Assembly (NCBI RefSeq): GCF_039794105.1
Contig: NZ_JBDIWA010000009.1
Coordinates: 342-32,341, forward strand
DNA: 32,000 nucleotides
Origin: Candidatus Kuenenia sp.
GTDB lineage: Bacteria > Planctomycetota > Brocadiia > Brocadiales > Brocadiaceae
Direction of reading: 5' to 3'
The position numbers and the translations under genes are program-made. How positions within the stretch are numbered: position 1 is the first letter of the stretch; each line of letters begins with the position of its first letter. Shown here one piece after another: positions 5,703-32,000 of this stretch. The notes under the pieces were generated by a model. It was not told the DNA's origin and did not search any database. It was given only the letters and a program-made list of their open reading frames with translations.

Positions 5703-7271
5703 TTAAACTTTATTATTCATCGCTATATTTCTCCCAGGATTTTCAGTTTCTTTTTCAATCCTGGGGAACAATGGCTTCCCCTTTTTTACGATAACGCCGC
5801 TTTTTATGACCTGCTGATATTCCAGGCAAGGGGATTCATTGTTTTCCAGAATACCAAGTTGTTTTTGTATTTCAATACAGGTGTTTGGCATAAAAGGGTA
5901 AATAAATATTGAAATATCTTTGATTGCCTTTGCCAGCGAACTGATTATATTTTTCAGTTGAGGTCTGTAGGCGCTCGTTTTTGCAAGCACCCATGGTTTT
6001 TTTTCTTCAATACATTTATTTGCGCTTCCCACAAACTCCCAGATTGCTTCCAACGCTTTGCTAAATTGAAGATTGTCCAATTCCTTGTTTATTTTACTGC
6101 GGGTATTCTGAGAGATTTCCTTTAATACATCGTCTTTCTCTGAATATTCAGGTATTACTGCATCGAAATATTTTTCAATCATGGTGAGTGTACGTTGTAG
6201 CAGGTTACCCAGGTCATTGCCAAGGTCAGAATTAATCCTGTTTATTAAAGCGGTGTAGGAAAAATTGCCGTCGGATCCGAAAGGAACTTCTCTGAGGATG
6301 AAATACCGGTAAGCATCCGTACCATAGATTTGGATAATGTTTAATGGGTCTATTGCGTTTCCCAATGATTTGGAAATCTTTTGCCCTTCAATGGTCCACC
6401 AGCCGTGGGTAAAGATTTTAAAGGGTAATTCTATGTTTAATGACATAAGGATTGCCGGCCAGATTGCCCCATGAAACCACAAGATTTCTTTTCCTATGAT
6501 ATGTACATTTGCCGGCCAGTATTTCTGGAATAGCTCCATATCATCATCATAGCCCAGAGCCGTTATGTAGTTTAAAAGCGCGTCTATCCAAACATATATT
6601 GTGTGCATAGTATCCATGGGCACTTGAATTCCCCAGGTTACTGCAGATCTGCTTATGCTGATATCTTCAATATGAGAGGTTATTCTTTGGAGTATTTCAT
6701 TTCTTCTTGATTCAGGTTGAATAAATTCCGGATGCTTATCATAGTGTTCAATAAGCGGTTTTTGATATTTTGATAACCGAAAGAAATAATTTTTTTCTTT
6801 TACTTTTTCTACATTGCGTTTGCATTCCGGACACCTTCCTTCGTCGAGTTGCGTTTCTGTCCAAAAGCTTTCACAGGGAACGCAGTATCTTCCTTCGTAT
6901 TCTCCAAGGTAAATATCGTCGTTTTCGAATAACTTCTGAAATATCTTTTTGACACGTTTAACATGCCGTTCGTCGGTGGTGCGTATGAAGTCGTCGTTGG
7001 AAATATTGAGATTTTTCCACAGATCTTTGAACTTGCCTACAACCATATCGACAAAATCATTAGGTGCTTTGTTGCAGGCTTCGGCGGCCTTTTGAATTTT
7101 CTGCCCATGTTCATCTGAACCGGTCAAAAAGAATACGTCATATTGCTGCAACCTTCTGTACCGGGCTAAAACATCTGCGGCTATGGTAGTGTAAGAATGT
7201 CCGATATGAGGTATATCATTTACGTAATAGATAGGTGTGGTAAGATAAAAAGACTGCCTACTCATGACCAC
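5703..7271 (-). CDS. metG: Methionine--tRNA ligase
   Basis: TTPIYYVNDIPHIGH (HIGH motif), KISKSLGN (KMSKS motif) and a CVPC...CPEC zinc knuckle. 522 aa with no C-terminal Trbp111-like domain. Confidence 0.95.
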   Translation of the reverse strand: MVMSRQSFYLTTPIYYVNDIPHIGHSYTTIAADVLARYRRLQQYDVFFLTGSDEHGQKIQKAAEACNKAPNDFVDMVVGKFKDLWKNLNISNDDFIRTTDERHVKRVKKIFQKLFENDDIYLGEYEGRYCVPCESFWTETQLDEGRCPECKRNVEKVKEKNYFFRLSKYQKPLIEHYDKHPEFIQPESRRNEILQRITSHIEDISISRSAVTWGIQVPMDTMHTIYVWIDALLNYITALGYDDDMELFQKYWPANVHIIGKEILWFHGAIWPAILMSLNIELPFKIFTHGWWTIEGQKISKSLGNAIDPLNIIQIYGTDAYRYFILREVPFGSDGNFSYTALINRINSDLGNDLGNLLQRTLTMIEKYFDAVIPEYSEKDDVLKEISQNTRSKINKELDNLQFSKALEAIWEFVGSANKCIEEKKPWVLAKTSAYRPQLKNIISSLAKAIKDISIFIYPFMPNTCIEIQKQLGILENNESPCLEYQQVIKSGVIVKKGKPLFPRIEKETENPGRNIAMNNKV

Positions 7272-8139
7272 AATCCTCTTTGCAGGATTGAAGACAATCG
7301 CTTTTCCCCTTCTGGGCGGGTGGTGCAGGTTTATTTTGTACCACCCTGGTTATCTCTTTGGTGGAAACTGTAAACCGGCTTCCGTTTTCCAATTCCACAG
7401 TAACCTGTTGCTGCAAAATATCGTGGTTGATTATTTCTCCAATGCCTTTTGCGGTTTTCACGGAAGTTCCTTTTTTAGGAAGTCCCTGTTTTAACTCTTC
7501 ATAAACGCGGTCCTCGTAGCGCAGACAACACATCAGCCGGCCACATCTCCCTGATATTTTAGAGGGGTCCAGGGTGGCTTTTTGGTTTTTTGCCATTTTC
7601 ATCGTAACCGGTTCTAAGTTTTTCAGGAAAGACCGGCAGCATAGTTCCTGCCCGCAGTGTTCGTAATCCGCCAAAAGCCTTGCTTCATCGCGTACGCCAA
7701 TTTGTTTCAACTCTATTCGCGCCTGATATTCTTTTGCAAGATCCTTTACCAGTTCTCTGAAATCAACGCGTCCATTGGCAAGAAAATAAAAAATGATTTT
7801 TTTACTCCCAAATAAGTGCTCTACGTATGCAAGTTTCATGAGGAGTTTATGTTCTTTCATCTTCATTTGGCAAAATTTCGATTCACTTGGGATGGTTTCC
7901 TGGTCTATTTTTTTCTGCTTTTCTTTATCCTCCGGTGTTGCTTTTCGCAGTACTTCCCCAAGATATTCGACGGATGCATCATCTTCTATTTCACGTACTT
8001 TAGCAATAACAGTGCCAAATTCTATTCCTCTGTGAGAGCGGATGATCACCTCGTCACCCCTTTTTATTGAGTTCATTGGCGCAAAAAAATCTCCGGTATT
8101 TTTTAATACGCCGTATCGAATGGTTAAAATTTGTCGCAT
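7258..8139 (-). CDS. ricT: PSP1 domain protein (RicT/YaaT-like)
   Basis: PSP1 C-terminal-domain-like region (RIELKQIGVRDEARLL..YEHCGQELCC..FL, GRCGRLMCCLRYE). Overlaps the metG start by 14 nt. PSP1-metG adjacency is common in bacteria. Confidence 0.8.
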   Translation of the reverse strand: MRQILTIRYGVLKNTGDFFAPMNSIKRGDEVIIRSHRGIEFGTVIAKVREIEDDASVEYLGEVLRKATPEDKEKQKKIDQETIPSESKFCQMKMKEHKLLMKLAYVEHLFGSKKIIFYFLANGRVDFRELVKDLAKEYQARIELKQIGVRDEARLLADYEHCGQELCCRSFLKNLEPVTMKMAKNQKATLDPSKISGRCGRLMCCLRYEDRVYEELKQGLPKKGTSVKTAKGIGEIINHDILQQQVTVELENGSRFTVSTKEITRVVQNKPAPPAQKGKSDCLQSCKEDCGHE

Positions 8140-11162: not shown

Positions 11163-11614
11163 TTCATCTCCTTATTGATAAGCGAAAGTATTAAATAATT
11201 AAAGTATGAGCCCCCTGCTGGCGACCAAATAAATTCATGGATTCAGACGGCAAGAACCCGCCGTGATTGACTCATTTGAATTTGAAAATGTTGCGTGACT
11301 GTTGCACTTGTTGGCAGTAATTTCATGCTGCACGGTTGAAAACAAATTTCCAAACAAGATAAATGTTTTATGGAGTACATAATTGATAAAATGAAGTTTT
11401 GTAAATACTATAGAACCTATTGTAAAAATGCAAACTTTTTTCACCTGTATTTGTCGCAGAATAAGAATAGTTGGAGGTTTTTTCCCTGAAGAATGTTCTC
11501 TTTCATTCTGACAAATATTTGATACTATGAGATTACGCTTCGTTTTCGGTAAAAGCAGTAAACGTGTATTAACAAATATCTTCAAAATTACAACATGTAA
11601 GGAGGGGCGCGAGT

Positions 11615-12247
11615 ATGAATAATTATTTGATTCCGTTATTTATATTAATTGTTTTAGGAATAAATGGCGCATTGTGTGGTGAAAGTAAAAATAGCGATAG
11701 TGATACAACTCATGAAAAATATGAAAGGGCTACCTTTGCCGGGGGTTGTTTTTGGTGTATGCAGCATCCCTTCGACCAATTAGAGGGCGTGATTTCCACT
11801 GCTGTAGGATATACCGGCGGCAATGTTGAGAATCCTGCCTATGAGGAGGTATCTTCCGGCAGGACGGGCCATGCAGAAGCGATAGAGATCCGGTATGACC
11901 CCTCGCTCATTTCTTACGCGTCTCTTTTGCAAGTATTTTGGAGAAATATTGATCCTACTGCAATGAACAGGCAATTTGCTGACGTAGGGTCTCAATACCG
12001 AACGGCAATCTTTTATCATACGGAGGAACAGAAAAATCTTGCCGAGTCGTCAAAAAAAGAGTTGGAGAAATCGGGAAAATTTAATAAGCCAATTGTCACG
12101 GAAATTGTGCCTGCTTCGGCATTTTACAAGGCGGAAGATTATCATCAGAAATATTATGAGAAAAACCCGACACAGTACAACAAGTATAAATATGGATCTG
12201 GAAGGGAGCGGTATTTAAAAGAGACGTGGGAAAAGGACGCAAAGTAA
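11615..12247 (+). CDS. msrA: Peptide-methionine (S)-S-oxide reductase MsrA with N-terminal signal peptide
   Basis: GGCFWC active-site motif, GYTGG, GHAEA. The N-terminal hydrophobic leader MNNYLIPLFILIVLGINGALCG suggests export. SD AAGGAGG upstream. Confidence 0.95.
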   Translation: MNNYLIPLFILIVLGINGALCGESKNSDSDTTHEKYERATFAGGCFWCMQHPFDQLEGVISTAVGYTGGNVENPAYEEVSSGRTGHAEAIEIRYDPSLISYASLLQVFWRNIDPTAMNRQFADVGSQYRTAIFYHTEEQKNLAESSKKELEKSGKFNKPIVTEIVPASAFYKAEDYHQKYYEKNPTQYNKYKYGSGRERYLKETWEKDAK

Positions 12248-12291
12248 AATAGCGTTTCTCTGTGTTCTTCAATGAAATAGTGTTTTTTGTT

Positions 12292-14118
12292 TTATTCTAC
12301 CGTCACGCTCTTTGCCAGATTTCTTGGTTTGTCCACATCGCAACCACGTAAGACTGCCATATGGTATGCAAGTAATTGGAGGGGAATTACCGAAAGAATT
12401 GGTATCAGAACGCCTGTAGTTTCCGGGATATGGAATACATGATCAACCTTTTTGGCAATTTCTCTGTCACCTTCCGTTGCAATTGCAATGACTTTTCCAC
12501 CCCTTGATTTCACTTCTTCAATGTTGTTGAGTATTTTTCCATACGTACTGTCTTTTGTTGCGATAAATATTACCGGCATATTTTTGTCAATAAGGGCAAT
12601 GGGGCCGTGTTTCATTTCAGCCGCGGGATAGCCCTCTGCGTGGATATATGAGATTTCCTTTAATTTAAGGGCGCCCTCAAGCGCTACGGGATAGTTGAAT
12701 CCTCTACCAAGATAGAGGGCGTGGTTAGTGTGTTTGTAGATTTTCGCGATTTCACCTATTTCCTTTTCTCTGTCGAGAATGGTTTGTATCTTATCAGGGA
12801 TAGTCCTGATGGCGGAAATCATTTCAGGCGGAATGGCATAGTCTTTGTTTTTCAGGAGCAGCAGGTAAAGGGAAAACAAATAGAACGCGGCTATCTGTGC
12901 AGTAAATGCCTTTGTGGATGCAACCCCTATTTCCGGGCCGATATGCAGGTAAATTCCCGATCCTGCCTCACGGGCAATGCTGCTTCCGACAACATTGCAG
13001 ATAGACAGCATTGCTGCCCCCTTTCCCTTTGCCTGGCGCATAGCCGCCAATGTATCCGCTGTTTCCCCCGATTGACTGATGGCGATTACTATGGTGTTCT
13101 TTTCTATAATGGGATTACGATAACGAAATTCAGATGCATATTCCACTTCGACGGGAAGCCTGACCAACTCTTCCAGCATATACTCTCCGACCAATCCGGC
13201 ATGCCAGGACGTTCCGCACGCAATAATGATAATCCGTTTTGCTTCTAAAAGTTCTTTTTCCCGGTTAATGAGCCCGCCTAATTTTATCGGACCGCGGTTT
13301 CCGTCCACCCTACCTCTCATAAGGTTGAGGAGCGCCTGGGGCTGTTCGTGGATTTCTTTCAGCATGAAGTGTTTGTAACCGCCTTTTTCGATCATATCAA
13401 TATTCCACAACACCTCTTCCGTTTTTTTATAGGTAGGGATATTTTGTATGGTCTTTGTTTTGTAACCTTCGGGAGTGAGGATTGCTATCTCATTATCATC
13501 CAGGTACATTACTTCCCGTGTATGTTCCAGTGAGGCGGACACGTCAGAAGTAATGAAATATTCATGGTCGCCAATCCCCAGTATTAACGGCGATCCATTT
13601 CTTGCCGCTACGATTTTTTCGGGATCTTTTGAAGAAATAGCTGCAAGTCCATACGTTCCTTCCACTTTCTTCAGGGCTTCCATGACAGCGGTTTCAAGAT
13701 TATCCCGGTAATGTTCCTCGATAAGATGTGCCAGCACCTCGGTATCTGTTTGGCTTTTGAATGTATGGCCGTTTTGCTGCAATTTTAGTTTCAAATAGTC
13801 ATAATTCTCAATGATCCCATTATGCACCACTGCGATTTCGTTATGGCAATCAAAGTGGGGATGCGCATTTTCAAAAGTCGGTGCACCATGGGTCGCCCAT
13901 CGTGTATGAACAATCCCTGCATGTGAAATACAGGCATGACCACTTAATTTTTCTTCCAGCATTGCAATTTTTCCAACAGCCTTCTCGCAGCGCAGGGAAC
14001 CGTTTTCAAAAAAGGCAATCCCGGAAGAATCATAGCCGCGATATTCCAGCCTTTTGATGCCATGCATCAAAACATTGAGGGCATTTTTAGGTCCAATATA
14101 CCCGACAATTCCACACAT
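12292..14118 (-). CDS. glmS: Glutamine--fructose-6-phosphate aminotransferase (isomerizing)
   Basis: MCGIVGY N-terminal nucleophile, two SIS domains, C-terminal ...KPRNLAKSVTVE, 608 aa. Confidence 0.97.
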   Translation of the reverse strand: MCGIVGYIGPKNALNVLMHGIKRLEYRGYDSSGIAFFENGSLRCEKAVGKIAMLEEKLSGHACISHAGIVHTRWATHGAPTFENAHPHFDCHNEIAVVHNGIIENYDYLKLKLQQNGHTFKSQTDTEVLAHLIEEHYRDNLETAVMEALKKVEGTYGLAAISSKDPEKIVAARNGSPLILGIGDHEYFITSDVSASLEHTREVMYLDDNEIAILTPEGYKTKTIQNIPTYKKTEEVLWNIDMIEKGGYKHFMLKEIHEQPQALLNLMRGRVDGNRGPIKLGGLINREKELLEAKRIIIIACGTSWHAGLVGEYMLEELVRLPVEVEYASEFRYRNPIIEKNTIVIAISQSGETADTLAAMRQAKGKGAAMLSICNVVGSSIAREAGSGIYLHIGPEIGVASTKAFTAQIAAFYLFSLYLLLLKNKDYAIPPEMISAIRTIPDKIQTILDREKEIGEIAKIYKHTNHALYLGRGFNYPVALEGALKLKEISYIHAEGYPAAEMKHGPIALIDKNMPVIFIATKDSTYGKILNNIEEVKSRGGKVIAIATEGDREIAKKVDHVFHIPETTGVLIPILSVIPLQLLAYHMAVLRGCDVDKPRNLAKSVTVE

Positions 14119-14138
14119 ATACGATTTCCTCTCCTGGG

Positions 14139-15146
14139 TTACGATGTATGCATTACTTTTTTAATCGCCTGATACATTTCGGGCAGTTTTCTCAATAACA
14201 CCTGTATTCGCTTTTCTTCATGTATCGCCTTTGCCGGAGCACCCCAGACAACAGCGCCCGGTTTGAGGCTTTTATAGACCTTCGATCCTCCCCCGATAAC
14301 GCAATTATCCCCGATTATTGCATGGTCAGTAATGCCTACGTCTTCGGCAACCATAACATTTTTACCGATTTTTACGCTGCCGGCAATTTTTGCATAGCCT
14401 ACAAGCATTGTATTATCCCCGATTTCCACATTATGCGCGATATGCGAATGATTGTCTATTTTTACGCCGTTTCCGATGATTGTTTTATCAATGGCGGCGC
14501 GGCAAACAGTTACCATTGATCCGATTTCTACATCATCACCAATTTCCACCGTTCCGATTTGGGGGATCTTGATGTGCTTTTTTTCCATTTGCAGATAACC
14601 GAAACCATCATCGCCAATAACACTGTTACAATGAATAATTACCCTTCTGCCAATACTACATTTTTCCCTGATAGAGACATTCGCATAAATAAGGGCATTG
14701 TCTCCGATCTTGCAATCCTTTCCAATAAACGTACCGGGATAAATGACAACATTGTTTCCAATTACAGCGTTATCTTCTATCACAACATACGCGCCAATAG
14801 ACGCATCCTTGCCAATTGCAGCGCTGCTGCTGATAATTGCAGAAGGATGGATGATTGCCTGGCGGGCAAATCTCTTTTTTGCAGCATCGCCCAGGAGGAG
14901 GGTAAATGCAAAAAACGGATTTTGCAGTATGATGCAGGGTTTTTTTAAGGCGGGAATTTCCCGATGTACTACAAATGCAGAAGCCTGAGAAGACTGAGAC
15001 TGCCTGATGAGCGTATCATTTTTAACAAAAGAAATATCACCTTCCCTCGCATTTTCAATGCCGGCAATACCGGTAATAACGGTTCCCCCCTCGCCAAGGA
15101 TTTTGCCACCTATGATTGATTGAATTTGGTGTAGGGTGTATTTCAT
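14139..15146 (-). CDS. lpxD: UDP-3-O-acylglucosamine N-acyltransferase
   Basis: N-terminal LpxD-type domain followed by a long left-handed beta-helix of hexapeptide repeats (IGxxxxIxxxxxIG...), 335 aa. Confidence 0.9.
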   Translation of the reverse strand: MKYTLHQIQSIIGGKILGEGGTVITGIAGIENAREGDISFVKNDTLIRQSQSSQASAFVVHREIPALKKPCIILQNPFFAFTLLLGDAAKKRFARQAIIHPSAIISSSAAIGKDASIGAYVVIEDNAVIGNNVVIYPGTFIGKDCKIGDNALIYANVSIREKCSIGRRVIIHCNSVIGDDGFGYLQMEKKHIKIPQIGTVEIGDDVEIGSMVTVCRAAIDKTIIGNGVKIDNHSHIAHNVEIGDNTMLVGYAKIAGSVKIGKNVMVAEDVGITDHAIIGDNCVIGGGSKVYKSLKPGAVVWGAPAKAIHEEKRIQVLLRKLPEMYQAIKKVMHTS

Positions 15147-26783: not shown

Positions 26784-27107
26784 CATAAGGTACTATGATA
26801 TAATTACGCCTGGGTAAGAAAAAGCTGGCTTTAGGGCAGGGTTGTTGTAATGTTACTACGTTAAACTGCTGCCGGTTTCCATTCTTTACGCTCCGTCAGT
26901 ATCTGGCAGTGAATATCTCAGGTGAAATACATAATTGAAAATATGATAACGAATTATGAATAATAGTGTCAAGCGTTTTATTAACCGGCAAAATGAGGCG
27001 GTAAAGATTACCGCAATTATTTCTGGTTGAATATGATATGTTATTTTATATTTACTTTTTTAGAAATTGTGATACCCTTAAAAATGTAAATTTTGGGAGG
27101 TTTTAGT

Positions 27108-28193
27108 GTGGAAAATTACATTTTAAGCCAGGCATTAGATTACACAAGCCGGGGGATAATGATCCAGGATGCACATCGCCGGGTTGTTTTTTTTAATCAT
27201 GCCTGCGAAAAAATTACGAAAAGAACCAAAGATGAAGTTGTCGGAAAGGATTGTGGTGATATTTTTAAGTGCCATACTTCAACGGGGTTATGTATAACGG
27301 ACAAGTGTTGTCCCGGTACAGAAATCCTGAATGGCCGTCTTTCTCAGGGTTCGCGGGAACTTTTGATTAACAGGGGCGATGACAGCGAATCATGGATAAG
27401 GGTAAATGTTTCCCCTATTAAGGATAAAGAAGGAAGGGTTACCCACATCATTTCTGTCATAGAAGATGTTAGCGAAGCAAAAAGATTTTCTGACGAAGTA
27501 CTCAAATCAAAAACACTATCTTCCCTTGGAACGCTCGCCTCTGAATTGGCGCATGAAATAAAAAATCCCCTCAATGCCATGAATCTTCAATTGTTATTGC
27601 TAAAACACGAAATCAATGATAGTTACGACAACGGCAATTCCCCAAAAAATGAATTGTTGAAAATTGTGACAATTGTTCAAAATGAAATTAACCGTCTCGG
27701 CAGTTTTGTGGAGGAATGTCTGCAGTTTGCAAAAACAGGCAAGCTAAGCAGAAGCTATGCAAACATTCGTGAAATGCTAACGGATATCATTGCCTTACTT
27801 ACTCCCCAGGCGCAACTCAATGGCATTCAATTGAAATTAGACGTAATGGAAAATATTCCCGCCCCGTATATTGACAAAGACAAGATAAAACAGGCAATAT
27901 TGAACATTCTTATCAACAGTATTGAAGCAATGCCTGACGGCGGGGAATTACATGTAAGCGCCAGCGGTGTAAAAGACGAAATTGTTATTGCCTGTCAGGA
28001 TACGGGACCAGGCATACCGGAAGAATTCAGGGAAAAGATATTTGATTTATTCTATACTACCAAGGATGGCGGCACCGGGATAGGCCTTTCTTCCGCGCAA
28101 AATATCATACAGAATCATGGCGGAATGATACGGCTGGCGACATCTGACGTTGGCAGTACATTTCTTATTACTATTCCTGTTAATCAGGATTAA
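27108..28193 (+). CDS. Soluble PAS-domain sensor histidine kinase (NtrB-like) with a Cys-rich PAS core
   Basis: No TM segments. PAS region with CGDIFKCHTSTGLCITDKCCPG. H-box ELAHEIKNPLNAM, N-box ILNILINSIEAM, G1 QDTGPGI, F/G2 FDLFYTTK..GTGIGLS. GTG at 27108 is preferred as the start (GGGAGG SD 7 nt upstream) over the TTG at 27093, which lies inside the SD. Confidence 0.85.
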   Translation: MENYILSQALDYTSRGIMIQDAHRRVVFFNHACEKITKRTKDEVVGKDCGDIFKCHTSTGLCITDKCCPGTEILNGRLSQGSRELLINRGDDSESWIRVNVSPIKDKEGRVTHIISVIEDVSEAKRFSDEVLKSKTLSSLGTLASELAHEIKNPLNAMNLQLLLLKHEINDSYDNGNSPKNELLKIVTIVQNEINRLGSFVEECLQFAKTGKLSRSYANIREMLTDIIALLTPQAQLNGIQLKLDVMENIPAPYIDKDKIKQAILNILINSIEAMPDGGELHVSASGVKDEIVIACQDTGPGIPEEFREKIFDLFYTTKDGGTGIGLSSAQNIIQNHGGMIRLATSDVGSTFLITIPVNQD

Positions 28194-28211
28194 AAAAGGG
28201 TTCATTACCTC

Positions 28212-29558
28212 ATGACAAAACCAAAGCTGTTAGTGGTTGAAGACGATAAAAATACCCTCGACGGATTGATACAGATTTTGAGAAGGGGCGGATATACCGC
28301 TTCCGGGGTCTCTTCCGGCTATGACGCCTTAAATCAACTCTCAAGGGAAAGCTTTGATATTGTTATAACAGACATGAAGCTTCCCGGTATGGGAGGGCTG
28401 TCATTGCTCCAGGAAATAAAGAAAAAAAACTCATCTATTGCCATTGTCGTTGTAACGGCGTACAGTTCTATCAAATCGGCGGTAAATGCGGTGAAACACG
28501 GAGCTGATGAATATTTAGCAAAGCCGGTAGACGTGGAAGAACTTGAATTGGTTTTGGAAAAACTTTGGGAGAAACAACAACTCGTAATCCAAAACCGGCT
28601 GTTAAAGGAAGAGCTGAAAGATAAGTATACATTTTCCGAGCTGGTGGGCGGCTCTCCGCAAATGCATCGGATTTTTAAACTGATTGAAGACGTTGCCCCC
28701 AGTACGGCCTCTGTTCTTATTATGGGAGAGACGGGAACGGGAAAGGAACTTGTAGCGCACGCCATACATTACAGGAGCGAAAGGGCCGGAAAACCATTCG
28801 TGGCATTGCATTGCGCCGCGCTATCTGAAGGAATTCTCGAGAGTGAATTATTCGGACACGAAAAGGGCGCCTTTACGGGGGCGATACAATCACGAAAGGG
28901 GCGGTTTGAACTGGCAGACGGCGGAACCCTTTTTCTGGATGAATTGGCAGAGATGAGCCTGAAAGTTCAGGTCAAATTGTTGCGCGTCCTGGAAAAAGGA
29001 GAGTTTGAACGTGTCGGCGGGGAAAAGACCATAAAAGTGGATGTGAGGTGTATTGCTGCAACAAACCGGAATCTTGAAGAGGAAGTCTCAGAGGGGAGAT
29101 TCCGGGAGGATTTATTTTACCGCCTCAACGTTATCTGCATCCAAATGCCCCCTTTGAGAGAAAGAAAAGACGATATTCCCATTCTCTCAAATTATTTTGC
29201 CGTTAAATATGCGAAGAAATACAAGAAAGAGATAAAAGGTTTCGACCCGGAGGCCATAAAAACGCTCTGTTCCCACCATTGGCAGGGCAATATCAGGGAA
29301 CTGCAAAATACCATAGAACGGGCTGTTGTATTGTGTAAAAGCGATACCATTTCCGTTGATCATTTGCCGGAGAGCATTATGCCGGACAATGAATATATCC
29401 CGGTAATTAAAATACCCATAGGCACTACCCTGAAAGAAGCCGAAAAAGAGATCATCCAAAGAACCCTCCAAATAACCAATGGCAGCAAACAATCCGCTGC
29501 AAAAATATTGGGCATATCTACACGAAAAATCGAATACAAAACCAAAGAATGGTGCTGA
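28212..29558 (+). CDS. Sigma-54-dependent response regulator (NtrC family: REC, AAA+, Fis-type HTH)
   Basis: Receiver DIVITDMKLPGMGG. Walker A GETGTGKE, GAFTGA loop (EKGAFTGA), Walker B LFLDE. C-terminal HTH QSAAKILGISTRKIEYK. Confidence 0.95.
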   Translation: MTKPKLLVVEDDKNTLDGLIQILRRGGYTASGVSSGYDALNQLSRESFDIVITDMKLPGMGGLSLLQEIKKKNSSIAIVVVTAYSSIKSAVNAVKHGADEYLAKPVDVEELELVLEKLWEKQQLVIQNRLLKEELKDKYTFSELVGGSPQMHRIFKLIEDVAPSTASVLIMGETGTGKELVAHAIHYRSERAGKPFVALHCAALSEGILESELFGHEKGAFTGAIQSRKGRFELADGGTLFLDELAEMSLKVQVKLLRVLEKGEFERVGGEKTIKVDVRCIAATNRNLEEEVSEGRFREDLFYRLNVICIQMPPLRERKDDIPILSNYFAVKYAKKYKKEIKGFDPEAIKTLCSHHWQGNIRELQNTIERAVVLCKSDTISVDHLPESIMPDNEYIPVIKIPIGTTLKEAEKEIIQRTLQITNGSKQSAAKILGISTRKIEYKTKEWC

Positions 29559-29559
29559 A

Positions 29560-29576
29560 TGCGAAAAAAATTCGCA
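29560..29576. promoter_or_regulatory. Candidate enhancer (UAS) site 1: perfect 17-bp palindrome TGCGAA-AAAAA-TTCGCA
   Basis: Read directly. It starts 2 nt after the regulator's stop codon, about 170 bp upstream of the -24 element. It has the TGC-N11-GCA geometry of NtrC-type sites. Confidence 0.45.
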
Positions 29577-29600
29577 CGTTTTGCCGGCATATAGTCAATA

Positions 29601-29617
29601 TGCGAAAATTTTTCGGA
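29601..29617. promoter_or_regulatory. Candidate enhancer (UAS) site 2: TGCGAA-AATTT-TTCGGA (one mismatch from palindrome)
   Basis: Same half-site as site 1. The centres are 41 bp apart (about four helical turns). Lies about 127 bp upstream of the -24 element. Confidence 0.4.
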
Positions 29618-29734
29618 AAAATCTGCTAACAACCCCTCTCAAATACTTATCCATCCTGTAACAAAAATATCACCATTGTTATAACTCTCATCATATCAGA
29701 TATTTATTTCAAAATAACAGACAGGCATTTTTTC

Positions 29735-29750
29735 AGGCACAACGATTGCT
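29735..29750 (+). promoter_or_regulatory. Sigma-54 (-24/-12) promoter: AGGCAC-AACGA-TTGCT
   Basis: Matches the TGGCAC-N5-TTGCW consensus except for the first T. The invariant GG (29736-37) and GC (29748-49) are separated by exactly 10 nt. It is on the same strand as the hemerythrin gene and upstream of it, directly downstream of a sigma-54 activator gene. Confidence 0.6.
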
Positions 29751-30033
29751 AGCGAAGTTCTAAGGTAGTTTGATATGTGTTGCGTCTTTGTTCCCCGCTG
29801 GTGGGGCATTAAAGCGAAGGAATAGGACTAGGATGAATGAAGCTTACCCTGTTTAGATAAATTAGTAAGCCTGAATATTTACTATGTTAATTATTTAACT
29901 GGGCAGGCGCACCCCATCAAACAAAAGTAAATACTATTGAATTGATGGGTTCACTCCGCTTCACCCATCCTACGGAATATCCAAAAAGTCGTTGGGTTTT
30001 TTAAGAGGAAATATTATTTAGGGAGATGGAGTT

Positions 30034-30441
30034 ATGCCTTTAATGACATGGAAAGATGAGTATAGTGTAAAAATTGCTGAGTTTGATGGACATCATAAGC
30101 AACTAATAGAAATGATTAATGATCTGGATGACGCTATGAGGCAGGGGAAAGGGAAGCTCGTTGTTGGTGAAATTTTAAAAAAATTAATAAATTACACAGG
30201 TTTCCATTTTGCCGCAGAAGAGAAGATATTTAAGCAACATGATTATCCGGAATATGTTGAGCACAAGGACAAACACGACAAGATGACGGCAAAGGTATTA
30301 GCGCTTCAAAATGATTACAATGCGGGAAAAGTAAGCTTAACCGTAGAGGTCTCAAAATTCCTTACCGATTGGCTAAATAAACATATTAGTGAAACGGATC
30401 AGAGGTATAGCAAACATCTGAACAGTAAAGGTATAAAATAA
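30034..30441 (+). CDS. Hemerythrin (bacteriohemerythrin-type di-iron O2-binding protein)
   Basis: 135 aa. MTWKDEYSVKIAEFDGHHKQL, HFAAEE, HKDKHD and WLNKHISETD supply the canonical His/Glu/Asp iron ligand pattern. SD GGGAGA 7 nt upstream. Confidence 0.9.
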   Translation: MPLMTWKDEYSVKIAEFDGHHKQLIEMINDLDDAMRQGKGKLVVGEILKKLINYTGFHFAAEEKIFKQHDYPEYVEHKDKHDKMTAKVLALQNDYNAGKVSLTVEVSKFLTDWLNKHISETDQRYSKHLNSKGIK

Positions 30442-30601
30442 GGGCGGATTATTTTAAGGAATTTAATGCTTTTTTGATCCATGTCTGAAGCAGGAAGGAG
30501 GTGTATTGATTAATTCAGTGCAGTATATTGTTAGTAATTCTTTGTTTGAATTTTAAGATATTTTGATAAATCTACATACTTTTTAGGAGGAGTTAATAAT
30601 T

Positions 30602-31312
30602 ATGGCTATGTCAACTGACGCATTTTTTGACAAACTGGAAGCAGAAGTTTTAAAACATCCGGCGGCTAACGACCACCCATATTTGCAAAAATTCAGAACA
30701 AAAGCGGATATGAAGGCGGTAAAATTATATGCGGAACAATACTATTGTTTTTCAAGGCATTTTTCACGGTATTTGGCTGGTGCAATTGCTATTTGTCCCG
30801 ACGAAGCAGGCAGGGCGCCTTTAATTAAGAATTTATTTGAAGAGTACGGCGGTAGAAGTGAAGAGAAAAAAGGCATGGATGCAGAACTTACCCACCCTGC
30901 AATCTTCCGCAGATTCTTAAAGGCGGCTGGCGTTAATACCGATCAGCAGGCATTGAACAATATAGTAATGCTGCCTGAGACAAAATTGTTTGTGGAAAAA
31001 TACCTGAACATTCATTATATGGATTATGTTGAAGCCTTGGGGGCATTGGGACCAGGGACTGAGTATATTGTGCCTACCATGTATCAGCCGATTCGTGAAG
31101 GCTGTAAACGCGCCGGATTAAATGATGATGCAGTGCTCTTCTTTTCTGCTCATATAGAATTAGACGTTGAGCATGCCGCAAACATCAGAAACTCTCTGGT
31201 ATTTTGCTCTAAAACAGAAGAAGAGCAGAGAAAAATAAGGAAGGGCGCTCTTGATTTCCTTGACGCAAGAACGGTATTGTGGGACGGGTTAGAGAAGGCA
31301 ACCAAATTTTAA
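30602..31312 (+). CDS. Heme-oxygenase-like fold protein (iron-containing redox enzyme family; CADD/PqqC-like putative di-iron oxidase)
   Basis: 236 aa, all-helical pattern: HPYLQKF..., NLFEEYGG, HPAIFRRFLKAAG, GPGTEY, and HIELDVEH (H-x3-D-x2-H), as in the second metal-ligand helix of CADD-type proteins. AGGAGG SD upstream. Confidence 0.65.
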   Translation: MAMSTDAFFDKLEAEVLKHPAANDHPYLQKFRTKADMKAVKLYAEQYYCFSRHFSRYLAGAIAICPDEAGRAPLIKNLFEEYGGRSEEKKGMDAELTHPAIFRRFLKAAGVNTDQQALNNIVMLPETKLFVEKYLNIHYMDYVEALGALGPGTEYIVPTMYQPIREGCKRAGLNDDAVLFFSAHIELDVEHAANIRNSLVFCSKTEEEQRKIRKGALDFLDARTVLWDGLEKATKF

Positions 31313-31384
31313 TCAAAAAATCTGCTGGTGCGCTATAACTATTCCAACCGTTAAATTTGTTAACCACAAGGAAAGGAGTATTTT

Positions 31385-32000
31385 ATGGGATCCTTGTTTA
31401 TCCCGAACAAATCAAGGGCCACAGGCACATGGACCCGTTTAGGCGATGAGGTATTGCCCCAAAGCGGTATGTGCGTTACGTGCCTGGATGGCTGCCCCGG
31501 ATATTGCGAAATTGGCAAATCCGCCTATAGGGGGCCTGAAGCGATTTATCCTGTGCCGTTTGGAGAAATTACCGCAGGGGCGCAAAAGGATTTCCCCGTT
31601 GATTTTTCTCATTTTAACATAACAGGCTCAATCACAGGACATCACCAAAAGGAATATGACCTGTTTACCAACGCCTGTATTGAAACGAAAATGGGGAGGG
31701 ACGGTGGACTAAAATTGCGTATCCCCATAATTTGTACAGGCCTTGGTTCAACAAAAATAGCCCAAACCCACTTTGAGTCTTTAGGCTCCGGCGCAGCTAT
31801 CTGCGGCACTGGCATTGTCCTCGGTGAAAATGTGGCTGCGATGGATGATGATTCAACCATAACGGACGGCAATGTTACAAACAGCCCGGAATTAGTGAGG
31901 CGTTTCAAATCGTTTAAGGATCATCAAAAGGATGGGTATGGATTTATTGCAATTCAGGCAAACCAGGAAGACTGGCGTCTTGGGGTATTACCCTACTCCC
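31385..32000 (+). CDS. Glutamate-synthase-related FMN-type oxidoreductase (GltB domain-2-like), N-terminal part; 3' end lies outside the window
   Basis: Not in the ORF track because no stop occurs before the window end. I translated 205 codons with no stop from the ATG at 31385 (AGGAG SD 6 nt upstream). It contains CVTCLDGCPGYC (CxxCxxxCxxxC) and IPIICTGLGSTKIA...LGSGAAICGTGIVLGEN, which resembles the substrate/FMN barrel of COG0069-type proteins. Confidence 0.5.
   Translation, partial: MGSLFIPNKSRATGTWTRLGDEVLPQSGMCVTCLDGCPGYCEIGKSAYRGPEAIYPVPFGEITAGAQKDFPVDFSHFNITGSITGHHQKEYDLFTNACIETKMGRDGGLKLRIPIICTGLGSTKIAQTHFESLGSGAAICGTGIVLGENVAAMDDDSTITDGNVTNSPELVRRFKSFKDHQKDGYGFIAIQANQEDWRLGVLPYS

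Follow-up and report, generated by a model that had tools for sequence, protein, structure and literature searches.

The final 5 kb of the window, a 32,000-nt stretch of Candidatus Kuenenia sp. DNA (contig NZ_JBDIWA010000009.1), carries the genes for a sensor histidine kinase, an NtrC-family activator, a heme-oxygenase-like dimetal protein (HDO) and a glutamate-synthase-type flavin mononucleotide (FMN) protein, referred to below as GltS-like. Comparison with related genomes makes it fairly probable that these genes form a sigma-54 regulon that is conserved across the anammox bacteria (Brocadiales) and is centred on glutamate synthesis. The components are each of a known kind, whereas their combination and its regulation are undescribed, and literature searches combining HDO and glutamate synthase returned nothing relevant. 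The features of the module are as follows (coordinates are those of the window):

27093..28193, + strand: sensor histidine kinase (PAS, HisKA, HATPase_c), soluble, with a Cys cluster in the PAS domain (open reading frame and Pfam; orthologue of kustd1397, 'zraS')
28212..29558, + strand: NtrC-family sigma-54 activator with REC, AAA+ (GAFTGA) and Fis-type helix-turn-helix (HTH) domains (Pfam; orthologue of kustd1398, 'zraR')
29560..29576, no strand: distal candidate activator-binding palindrome TGCGAA-N5-TTCGCA, TGCGAAaaaaaTTCGCA, 0 mismatches
29601..29617, no strand: proximal candidate activator-binding palindrome TGCGAA-N5-TTCGGA, TGCGAAaatttTTCGGA, 1 mismatch, 41 nt from the distal site
29735..29750, + strand: predicted sigma-54 type -24/-12 promoter aGGCACaacgaTTGCt, core match GGCACaacgaTTGC at 29736-29749
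29760..30033, + strand: leader of ~274 nt, from the promoter to the hemerythrin ATG, first part homologous to the leader of Kuenenia relatives
30034..30441, + strand: bacteriohemerythrin (NF033749; orthologue of kustd1399), a lineage-specific insertion
30602..31312, + strand: clade-specific HDO, Haem_oxygenas_2 (PF14518; orthologue of kustd1400, there annotated 'pqqC')
31385..32000, + strand: first 205 codons of the 525-aa GltS-like protein (orthologue of kustd1401), running off the window

All the elements that an earlier reading of this DNA (the original prediction) had listed are present where it had placed them, and the identities that it gave to the genes agree with the Pfam and NCBIfam matches. 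The open reading frame (ORF) list of the window has all five genes on the + strand. The kinase has an alternative start at 27108, which is the gene call in contig L001 (Logan, 100% identical to the window); the same contig extends the truncated GltS-like ORF to its complete 525 aa. The locus is orthologous to kustd1397-1401 of K. stuttgartiensis. The hemerythrin, HDO and GltS-like proteins correspond to WP_347273970-72 and fall into the same 90% clusters as their K. stuttgartiensis orthologues. In strain MBR1 the gene order is recA, ligT, gltX, 'zraS', 'zraR', 'myohemerythrin', 'pqqC' and 'hypothetical, glutamate synthase' (PMC7438415 supplement), the same as in the window. Beyond that paper, a literature search for kustd1398-1401 and KSMBR1_1164/1165 gave nothing.

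The evidence for a common regulation comes from phylogenetic footprinting. The predicted promoter has GG at -24 and GC at -12, ten bases apart, in a TGGCAC-N5-TTGCW-like element, and its core GGCACaacgaTTGC is one of 2 exact matches in the window, compared with 0.18 expected from shuffled sequences. In ~43 of 47 related loci, the DNA 25-300 nt ahead of the first HDO gene contains a -24/-12 element with a score of 17.7 or more (of 20) on a simple consensus matrix, and several Scalindua loci carry a second one directly before the GltS-like gene. The background frequency of elements scoring at least 18.4, calculated over 1.4 Mb of related loci, is 0.06 per 800 nt, and ~40% of these are the HDO-upstream elements themselves. 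The two palindromes, found in the window at -173 and -132 from the -24 element, have counterparts of the TGCGMAA...TTKCGCA type at -172 to -177 and -131 to -136 in Kuenenia, Brocadia and Scalinduaceae, including genomes that encode the regulators elsewhere. The strict palindrome pattern occurs 12 times in 12.3 kb of these loci, against 0.034 per kb overall. An alignment of the DNA with those of K. hertensis and a Planctomycetota metagenome-assembled genome (MAG) shows that the palindromes and the promoter are conserved, as are the ~45 nt that immediately precede the start codon of HDO. The sites have held their positions while the proteins diverged to 42-65% identity. Locus counts are not independent events, as related loci share descent; still, many related genomes show these features in the same relative arrangement, which is more than would be expected by chance.

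A tblastn search of 57 loci with the window proteins placed orthologues of the kinase (42-86% identical) and of the activator (54-91%) immediately before the module in Kuenenia and in ten deep-branching loci, and 1.8 kb upstream of it in one Scalinduaceae genome (L019). The loci with a kinase orthologue upstream of the HDO module are L010-L012, L019, L039, L042, L044 and L046-L049. In Brocadia and in most Scalindua loci, the regulator genes are not adjacent to the targets. The link between regulators and targets, which the original prediction had drawn from position only, is now supported because the promoter and the palindromes are footprinted across genera and the gene order is conserved in Kuenenia and the deep-branching Brocadiia. 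By the same comparison, the sigma-54 promoter and the two activator sites appear to be real, and there is good comparative evidence that an orthologous activator and sigma-54 would drive the module throughout the order Brocadiales. A gene for sigma-54, rpoN, is annotated in K. stuttgartiensis (KSMBR1_0181; PMC7438415 supplement).

In ~35 loci, which belong to Kuenenia, Brocadia, Anammoxibacter, Scalindua and deep Brocadiia, the HDO and GltS-like genes are direct neighbours in the same orientation. The deep lineages have two HDO paralogues, in the order kinase, activator, HDO', HDO, GltS-like, and this conservation of gene order extends to lineages whose proteins are 42-60% identical. The original prediction had treated hemerythrin, HDO and GltS-like as a trio. 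The neighbourhoods uphold the HDO/GltS-like adjacency, next to NtrC-type regulators in Kuenenia and deep Brocadiia, whereas co-occurrence with hemerythrin does not reach beyond the window's Kuenenia lineage.

Six HDO loci, all from Scalinduaceae-type MAGs (L019, L021, L028, L029, L030 and L056), are devoid of the 525-aa gene and have instead, downstream on the same strand, a gene for a canonical 1530-aa GltB that shares 44% identity with E. coli GltB and comprises amidotransferase, central, FMN and GXGXG domains. Two MAGs combine both arrangements, with one HDO paired to the 1530-aa GltB and a second to the 525-aa GltS-like protein. Since HDO pairs with either the 525-aa form or the canonical GltB, this HDO clade is linked to glutamate synthases as such. 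The displacement by GltB is the strongest argument, from genome comparison, that the 525-aa protein may act in glutamate synthesis or in a closely related imine redox step. Among the Scalindua-type MAGs, the paralogous HDOs fall into GltB-type loci (the six listed above) and GltS-like-type loci (L035 and L052). In L021 and L028, a protein of ~250 aa that was not scanned and carries no family assignment is encoded between HDO and GltB.

Other neighbours are also enzymes of nitrogen or central metabolism. A RidA-type gene follows the GltS-like gene in the Kuenenia and Brocadia loci, an aminotransferase gene lies just upstream of the promoter in the Scalindua loci, and a citrate synthase gene is found upstream in L028. 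In three loci (L012, at 11512-14262, as well as L011 and L013) the RidA-type gene is in turn followed by a gene for a 916-aa fusion of a Glu/Leu/Phe/Val dehydrogenase (GDH) with an Asp/Glu racemase, which looks unusual. Given the conserved core and these nitrogen-metabolism neighbours, the module most likely acts in glutamate/2-oxoglutarate nitrogen metabolism. Of the three readings put forward in the original prediction, a divergent nitrogen-assimilation regulon has gained most, through the GltB replacement and the glnA and ANTAR neighbours of GltS-like genes in Firmicutes described below, although its classical nitrogen-starvation form did not stand, there being no induction under ammonium limitation. 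The other two, O2 scavenging and an O2-dependent biosynthesis, have been weakened.

The 525-aa GltS-like protein passes the PF01645 threshold (42.9 bits, cut-off 20.4) over residues 290-396 only. Its N-terminal C-x2-C-x3-C-x3-C motif (C30, C33, C37 and C41) and its KWGQGAK and DGxGGGTGMSP motifs are invariant. In a pairwise alignment with E. coli GltB (28% identity over 160 residues), KWGQGAK is opposite IKVAQGAKPGEGG and DGSGGGTGMSP is opposite GYDGGTGASP. The amidotransferase, central and GXGXG domains are absent, as is the Cx5Cx4C 3Fe-4S motif, the region of which contains no Cys. Assignment as a glutamate synthase large subunit, be it GltB or ferredoxin-dependent glutamate synthase (Fd-GOGAT), was rejected, the 525-aa protein having none of the defining domains of that subunit.

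This protein belongs to a very large and strongly conserved family: at least 8000 candidates were scored, all but one significant, and its members from Firmicutes, Aminicenantes, Omnitrophica and Armatimonadota are 54-56% identical to the window protein. The gene for the Desulfofundulus homologue is surrounded by ANTAR regulators, three copies of glnA and a split GltS of the archaeal type, and that for the Thermincola homologue comes after an ANTAR regulator. The Aminicenantales gene follows a NuoE/NuoF-like module, and the homologue in a non-anammox Brocadiia genome stands ahead of DAHP (3-deoxy-D-arabino-heptulosonate 7-phosphate) synthase and aminotransferase genes. These genomic contexts point to nitrogen and amino-acid metabolism as the probable setting of the family elsewhere. 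HDO/GltS pairing outside Brocadiales was seen neither in these and one further context of GltS-like homologues (five in all) nor at the closest non-anammox HDO. In the Thermincola locus (L059, 11695-13285), an ANTAR response regulator gene and then two tandem hemerythrin genes lie ~2 kb from the GltS-like homologue, placing hemerythrins beside this family a second time, in an unrelated phylum. A literature search found no biochemical study of the GltS-like family, and a paper on Clostridium thermocellum glutamate synthase (GOGAT) describes a multi-gene gogat cluster and has nothing on the 525-aa family. In K. stuttgartiensis, the 525-aa protein is one of only two glutamate-synthase candidates and is called hypothetical (PMC7438415). 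Just past the window end, at 6210-6419 of L001, an ORF overlaps the GltS-like stop codon; it is not the RidA-like gene of K. hertensis and Brocadia, its 70 available codons have no family match, and it is presumably kustd1403, which co-varies with HDO and GltS-like in the transcriptome data given below.

The HDO matches PF14518 with an E-value of 3.7e-30. Five of its putative ligands, E81, H98, H184, D188 and H191, are invariant in 31 sequences and the sixth, E154, is at least 90% conserved; the set (three His and three carboxylates, in the order Glu/His/Glu/His/Asp/His) aligns with the ligand positions of BesC and CADD. Its AlphaFold2 (AF2) model has a predicted local distance difference test score (pLDDT) of 92.3 and retrieves with Foldseek, at template-modelling (TM) scores of 0.75-0.84, HrmI (0.83), BesC (0.81) and CADD (0.75), and then PqqC and UndA. 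The family profile likewise finds BesC (4e-22), CADD (5e-15) and HrmI (3e-11). The original prediction would have failed on an HO-like protein without metal ligands; the alignment retains all six, and the predicted fold is a confident HDO fold. Identity to any characterised member is 19-24%. An exhaustive search returned two cluster representatives more than 50% identical to the window protein, the next being at 40%, and homologues with at least 51% identity are almost confined to Brocadiales-type anammox bacteria and deep Brocadiia, with one bin labelled Thermodesulfobacteriota in addition. As judged from alignments and the structural model, the protein is a bona fide, if predicted, heme-oxygenase-like dimetal protein of a new clade and not an orthologue of CADD, BesC or PqqC.

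Three more specific labels were tried. A CADD-type self-sacrificing p-aminobenzoate synthase, one of the enzymes suggested in the original prediction, was rejected: the TIGR04305 score is 70.4 bits against a cut-off of 200, and the sacrificial Tyr27 aligns with an invariant Leu28 (alignments with CADD of Chlamydia trachomatis and Nitrosomonas). The score against the BesC family is also under the cut-off (62 versus 500). The label PqqC was dropped, given a weak PF03070 hit (8e-7), the presence of the full metal-ligand set and the lack of pqq genes in ~45 neighbourhoods, a count that refers to neighbourhoods and not to whole genomes.

Distant non-anammox relatives of HDO (34-43% identity; P0169, P0205, P0179 and P0173) include fusion proteins. 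In some of them, the HDO domain is at the C-terminus of hybrid kinases with HNOBA, HisKA, HATPase, REC and Hpt domains; another one combines rubredoxin-like and PCP_red domains with HDO. These fusions hint at a signalling role for the subfamily. The closest stand-alone non-anammox relative is preceded by genes for an acyl-CoA-dehydrogenase-like flavoprotein and a Crp-type regulator. A second HDO paralogue of one 5.1-Mb genome (P0041, at 10001-10804 of L009) is devoid of E154 and has a Lys-rich C-terminal tail; there is no GltS-like gene in its vicinity, and the genes before it encode a sulfite/nitrite-reductase-like protein, a PALP enzyme, a JAB peptidase and TusA.

The activator contains Response_reg, Sigma54_activat (E 4.7e-73), AAA_lid_14 and HTH_8 domains (Pfam), and GAFTGA can be read in its translation; a REC domain, an AAA+ domain with GAFTGA and a C-terminal Fis-type HTH make it an NtrC-family bacterial enhancer-binding protein. 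It scores under the NCBIfam equivalog cut-offs for AtoC (470 versus 714), NtrC (TIGR01818, 442 versus 558.6) and ZraR (435 versus 760), and the kinase does so for AtoS (218 versus 646), NR(II) (96 versus 240) and ZraS. As both proteins are below all NtrBC, AtoSC and ZraSR cut-offs, the names 'zraSR' are similarity labels only. The PAS domain of the kinase, described as Cys-rich in the original prediction, indeed has three Cys residues that are invariant among 12 orthologues, in the contexts K-x-C, F-x-C-H and C-P-G, and a fourth that is present in 8 of the 12, with the spacing C-x6-CH-x5-C-x5-C. Clustered Cys residues in a PAS domain of the cytoplasm point to a signal of the metal, Fe-S or thiol redox type. 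Judging by this Cys-rich domain, the input is probably redox state, O2 or NO. Nitrogen starvation is probably not the input.

The hemerythrin scores 153.6 bits with NF033749 (cut-off 84) and its di-iron ligand pattern H, HxxxE, HxxxH, HxxxxD is readable (H20/21, H58, E62, H77, H81, H117 and D122). In the DNA alignment with K. hertensis and the Planctomycetota MAG, the gene appears as a ~600-nt insertion into the leader. It occurs only in the window's Kuenenia lineage, including K. stuttgartiensis, and is absent from L011, L012 and all other loci. The hemerythrin is therefore a recent insertion in the Kuenenia stuttgartiensis lineage and lies outside the conserved core. In place of the originally proposed trio, the absence of hemerythrin from the two closest other genomes leaves the HDO and GltS-like pair as the conserved unit.

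The leader, put at about 275 nt in the original prediction, measures ~274 nt to the hemerythrin ATG. The region 29500-30700 has no Rfam match to a leader RNA element, and the leader folds no better than its shuffles (z-score -0.86). At 29913-29969 it has segments that could pair into one or the other of two incompatible hairpins, CCCATCAA with TTGATGGG or else GATGGGT with ACCCATC, with no U-tract after them. Scans for a second promoter or a terminator between hemerythrin and HDO found nothing above chance, and a -24/-12 scan within the hemerythrin gene gave weak matches only. Elsewhere in the window, the best -24/-12 match of all is TGGCACTGTTATTGCT at 8002-8017 (- strand), with 20.2 of 20.5 on the matrix; it is located inside the 5' part of the ORF 7258-8139 (- strand), so either the true start of that ORF is further downstream or the match is due to chance.

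On the proposed mechanism, the soluble PAS kinase with its Cys/His cluster would phosphorylate the NtrC-family activator, as their domain content suggests. The activator would bind the two palindromes, ~175 and 133 nt upstream of the -24/-12 promoter, as the footprints suggest, and remodel the sigma-54 RNA polymerase there. The core of the operon would then be expressed: an HDO with a predicted complete 3-His/3-carboxylate dimetal site, together with a glutamate-synthase-type FMN enzyme. The latter would usually be the 525-aa form, which appears to have lost the 3Fe-4S motif and has the N-terminal four-Cys motif, and in some Scalinduaceae-type genomes the canonical 1530-aa GltB. The RidA-type imine deaminase, the GDH/Glu-racemase fusion, the aminotransferase and the citrate synthase are frequently encoded nearby. 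The 525-aa protein may be a ferredoxin-type glutamate synthase, or may reduce or oxidise a closely related imine. The HDO may act on an intermediate of that pathway, an amino acid or an imine, or together with it; alternatively, it may condition the enzyme in response to O2 or the redox state. We would go one step further only tentatively, and regard as possible, though doubtful, that the glutamate synthase of anammox bacteria has HDO as its obligatory, co-regulated partner, a new role for the superfamily in primary nitrogen metabolism. It might feed the synthase with nitrogen from an anammox-specific intermediate or oxidise such an intermediate, or else serve as an O2- or NO-responsive switch or protector, the signal being set by the Cys-cluster PAS kinase.

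Several observations weigh against a glutamate-synthesis regulon. Expression data are those for the orthologous K. stuttgartiensis locus and not for the window organism. In chemostats of K. stuttgartiensis under ammonium or nitrite limitation, expression in reads per kilobase per million mapped reads (RPKM) was as follows (PMC7438415 supplement):

Kinase: 26 under NH4 limitation, 27 under NO2 limitation
Activator: 34 under NH4 limitation, 49 under NO2 limitation
Hemerythrin: 28 under NH4 limitation, 23 under NO2 limitation
HDO: 203 under NH4 limitation, 695 under NO2 limitation
GltS-like: 232 under NH4 limitation, 662 under NO2 limitation
Next gene: 65 under NH4 limitation, 211 under NO2 limitation

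HDO, GltS-like and the next gene co-vary, and their threefold change, which is not significant (p 0.2-0.25), runs counter to an Ntr response. Under ammonium limitation, the amt and PII genes are up 50-130-fold in this data set and, according to the authors, no glutamine synthetase (GS)/GOGAT gene responds (PMC7438415). As it is not induced by ammonium limitation, the module is not a nitrogen-starvation regulon. The hemerythrin transcript, 7-30 times less abundant than those of HDO and GltS-like, does not co-vary with them, so that the original inclusion of hemerythrin among the co-expressed targets finds no support; its position between the promoter and HDO is not explained by an operon with a single promoter. 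Three Anammoxibacter-type loci (L004, L016 and L017) have no visible -24/-12 element. The relationship of GltS-like to the FMN domain of glutamate synthase is also remote, in sequence as in structure: hhalign gives the comparison with the E. coli GltB FMN domain a probability of 30%, phmmer and profile searches of PDB produced no meaningful sequence match, and Foldseek with its model (built from P0045, 91% identical, with the N-terminal 100 residues of low confidence) retrieved generic FMN TIM barrels only, with TM scores of 0.3-0.4. As there is no amidotransferase domain, glutamate-synthase activity is deduced from context. The dimetal O2-activating fold, moreover, has no obvious place in the glutamate synthesis of an anaerobe. 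Finally, sigma-54 dependence, activator binding and co-transcription are predictions from sequence comparison.

Among the competing explanations, the one that survives best, although we consider it unlikely, is O2 scavenging or detoxification. The FMN/Fe-S protein would oxidise glutamate or another amine, or accept electrons from ferredoxin, and would hand the electrons on to the dimetal site of HDO, where O2 would be reduced, with RidA hydrolysing the released imine, the redox-sensing kinase switching the module on with O2 and the hemerythrin of Kuenenia buffering O2. The complete dimetal site in a fold of O2-activating HDOs and the conserved Cys cluster in PAS fit this scheme, and a RidA gene after GltS-like in Kuenenia and Brocadia is more in line with an oxidation that releases an imine than with a reductive amination. 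The recruitment of hemerythrin into the same leader, the two hemerythrins near the Thermincola homologue and the flavoprotein that adjoins the sister-clade HDO point the same way. It is difficult to reconcile, however, with the 525-aa family being widespread and 55% identical in phyla without HDO, where it is found beside glnA, or with its replacement in some loci by the canonical GltB, an enzyme that cannot be regarded as a generic reductase. In Scalindua, a study of O2 handling credits the cbb3 oxidase and flavodiiron proteins, and its main text names no glutamate synthase or iron-containing redox enzyme.

Slightly less probable still is that HDO is a sensory or regulatory partner, whose dimetal site reports O2, NO or a metabolite such as 2-oxoglutarate and modulates or protects the glutamate synthase. 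The distant homologues (34-43%) fused to HNOBA-HisKA-HATPase-REC-Hpt kinases, or to a rubredoxin-like/PCP_red protein, are suggestive of such a function, and HDO also matches, weakly, PF11251, a HamA-like family that uses 2-oxoglutarate (PMC12522199). The pairing of HDO with two structurally different glutamate synthases favours a role in the pathway over one that is bound to a single protein surface. Then again, a stand-alone HDO acting as a sensor is not known, the characterised relatives found here are all enzymes and the HDO in the fusions could equally be an output domain.

An O2-dependent synthesis of a small molecule or cofactor (p-aminobenzoate, or an N-oxygenated or fragmented amino acid), with GltS-like as an accessory reductase, appears improbable. 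The closest solved relatives, BesC, HrmI and CADD, and the weak match to the CADD family TIGR04305 would favour it, but the scores are far from those of the respective families (70 bits versus 200 for TIGR04305, 62 versus 500 for BesC), the self-sacrificed Tyr27 of CADD is replaced by an invariant Leu and the neighbours are genes of primary nitrogen metabolism and not those of a biosynthetic cluster. That the adjacency is meaningless, with the kinase and the activator controlling other genes and the promoter-like and palindromic sites being due to chance, is hardly credible. What speaks for it is that regulators and targets are apart in Brocadia and most Scalindua loci, yet it is in these very genomes that the promoter and the two palindromes have kept their positions, and the gene order is kept among lineages with proteins 42-60% identical.

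Anammox bacteria drive a large share of the global loss of fixed nitrogen, and their nitrogen assimilation and gene regulation are poorly known. The locus offers a concrete, testable regulon with a predicted sensor, activator, two operator sites, promoter and targets. Through it, the very large uncharacterised 'FMN-binding glutamate synthase family' of anaerobes would for the first time be placed in a physiological context. HDOs have so far been known from O2-dependent natural-product and cofactor chemistry; here, an 'aerobic' enzyme type would be part of the primary metabolism of obligate anaerobes, beside genes for nitrogen assimilation. Either outcome, a new HDO reaction or a non-catalytic role, would be of interest to enzymologists.

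The components of the proposed glutamate-synthesis regulon were compared with known systems. With BesC, HrmI, CADD, UndA and SznF, the window HDO shares the helical HO-like fold and the Glu/His/Glu/His/Asp/His ligands; it differs from the characterised HDOs in forming a distinct clade limited to Brocadiales, in lacking the sacrificial Tyr of CADD and in being encoded beside primary nitrogen-metabolism genes of obligate anaerobes instead of in a natural-product cluster. GltS-like resembles the GltB FMN domain (PF01645) and the archaeal-type split GltS in passing the PF01645 cut-off and in having QGAK and DGGTGxSP in register with E. coli GltB; canonical GltB occupies its place in some genomes, and members of its family adjoin glnA elsewhere. 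It differs from GltB in its N-terminal Cx2Cx3Cx3C motif, present instead of Cx5Cx4C, and in its weak profile similarity.

Sensor kinases with Fe-S or Cys-based PAS domains that respond to redox state or O2 exist, e.g. NreB, and the window kinase likewise has a cytoplasmic PAS domain with several conserved Cys residues close together, although its Cys spacing, C-x6-CH-x5-C-x5-C, probably differs from that of NreB. A soluble PAS kinase paired with a REC/AAA+/Fis-HTH activator is common to this module and to NtrB/NtrC, AtoSC and ZraSR. Two palindromes 100-200 nt before a -24/-12 promoter are shared with NtrB/NtrC systems, as is a glutamate-synthase-type gene among the targets (cf. the glnA and gltBD operons of Proteobacteria). 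The module departs from all three systems in that its proteins are below the equivalog cut-offs, its PAS domain has a conserved Cys cluster and its first target gene is HDO. It also departs from Ntr control in its response, since the K. stuttgartiensis orthologues are not induced by the ammonium limitation that raises the amt and PII genes 50-130-fold.

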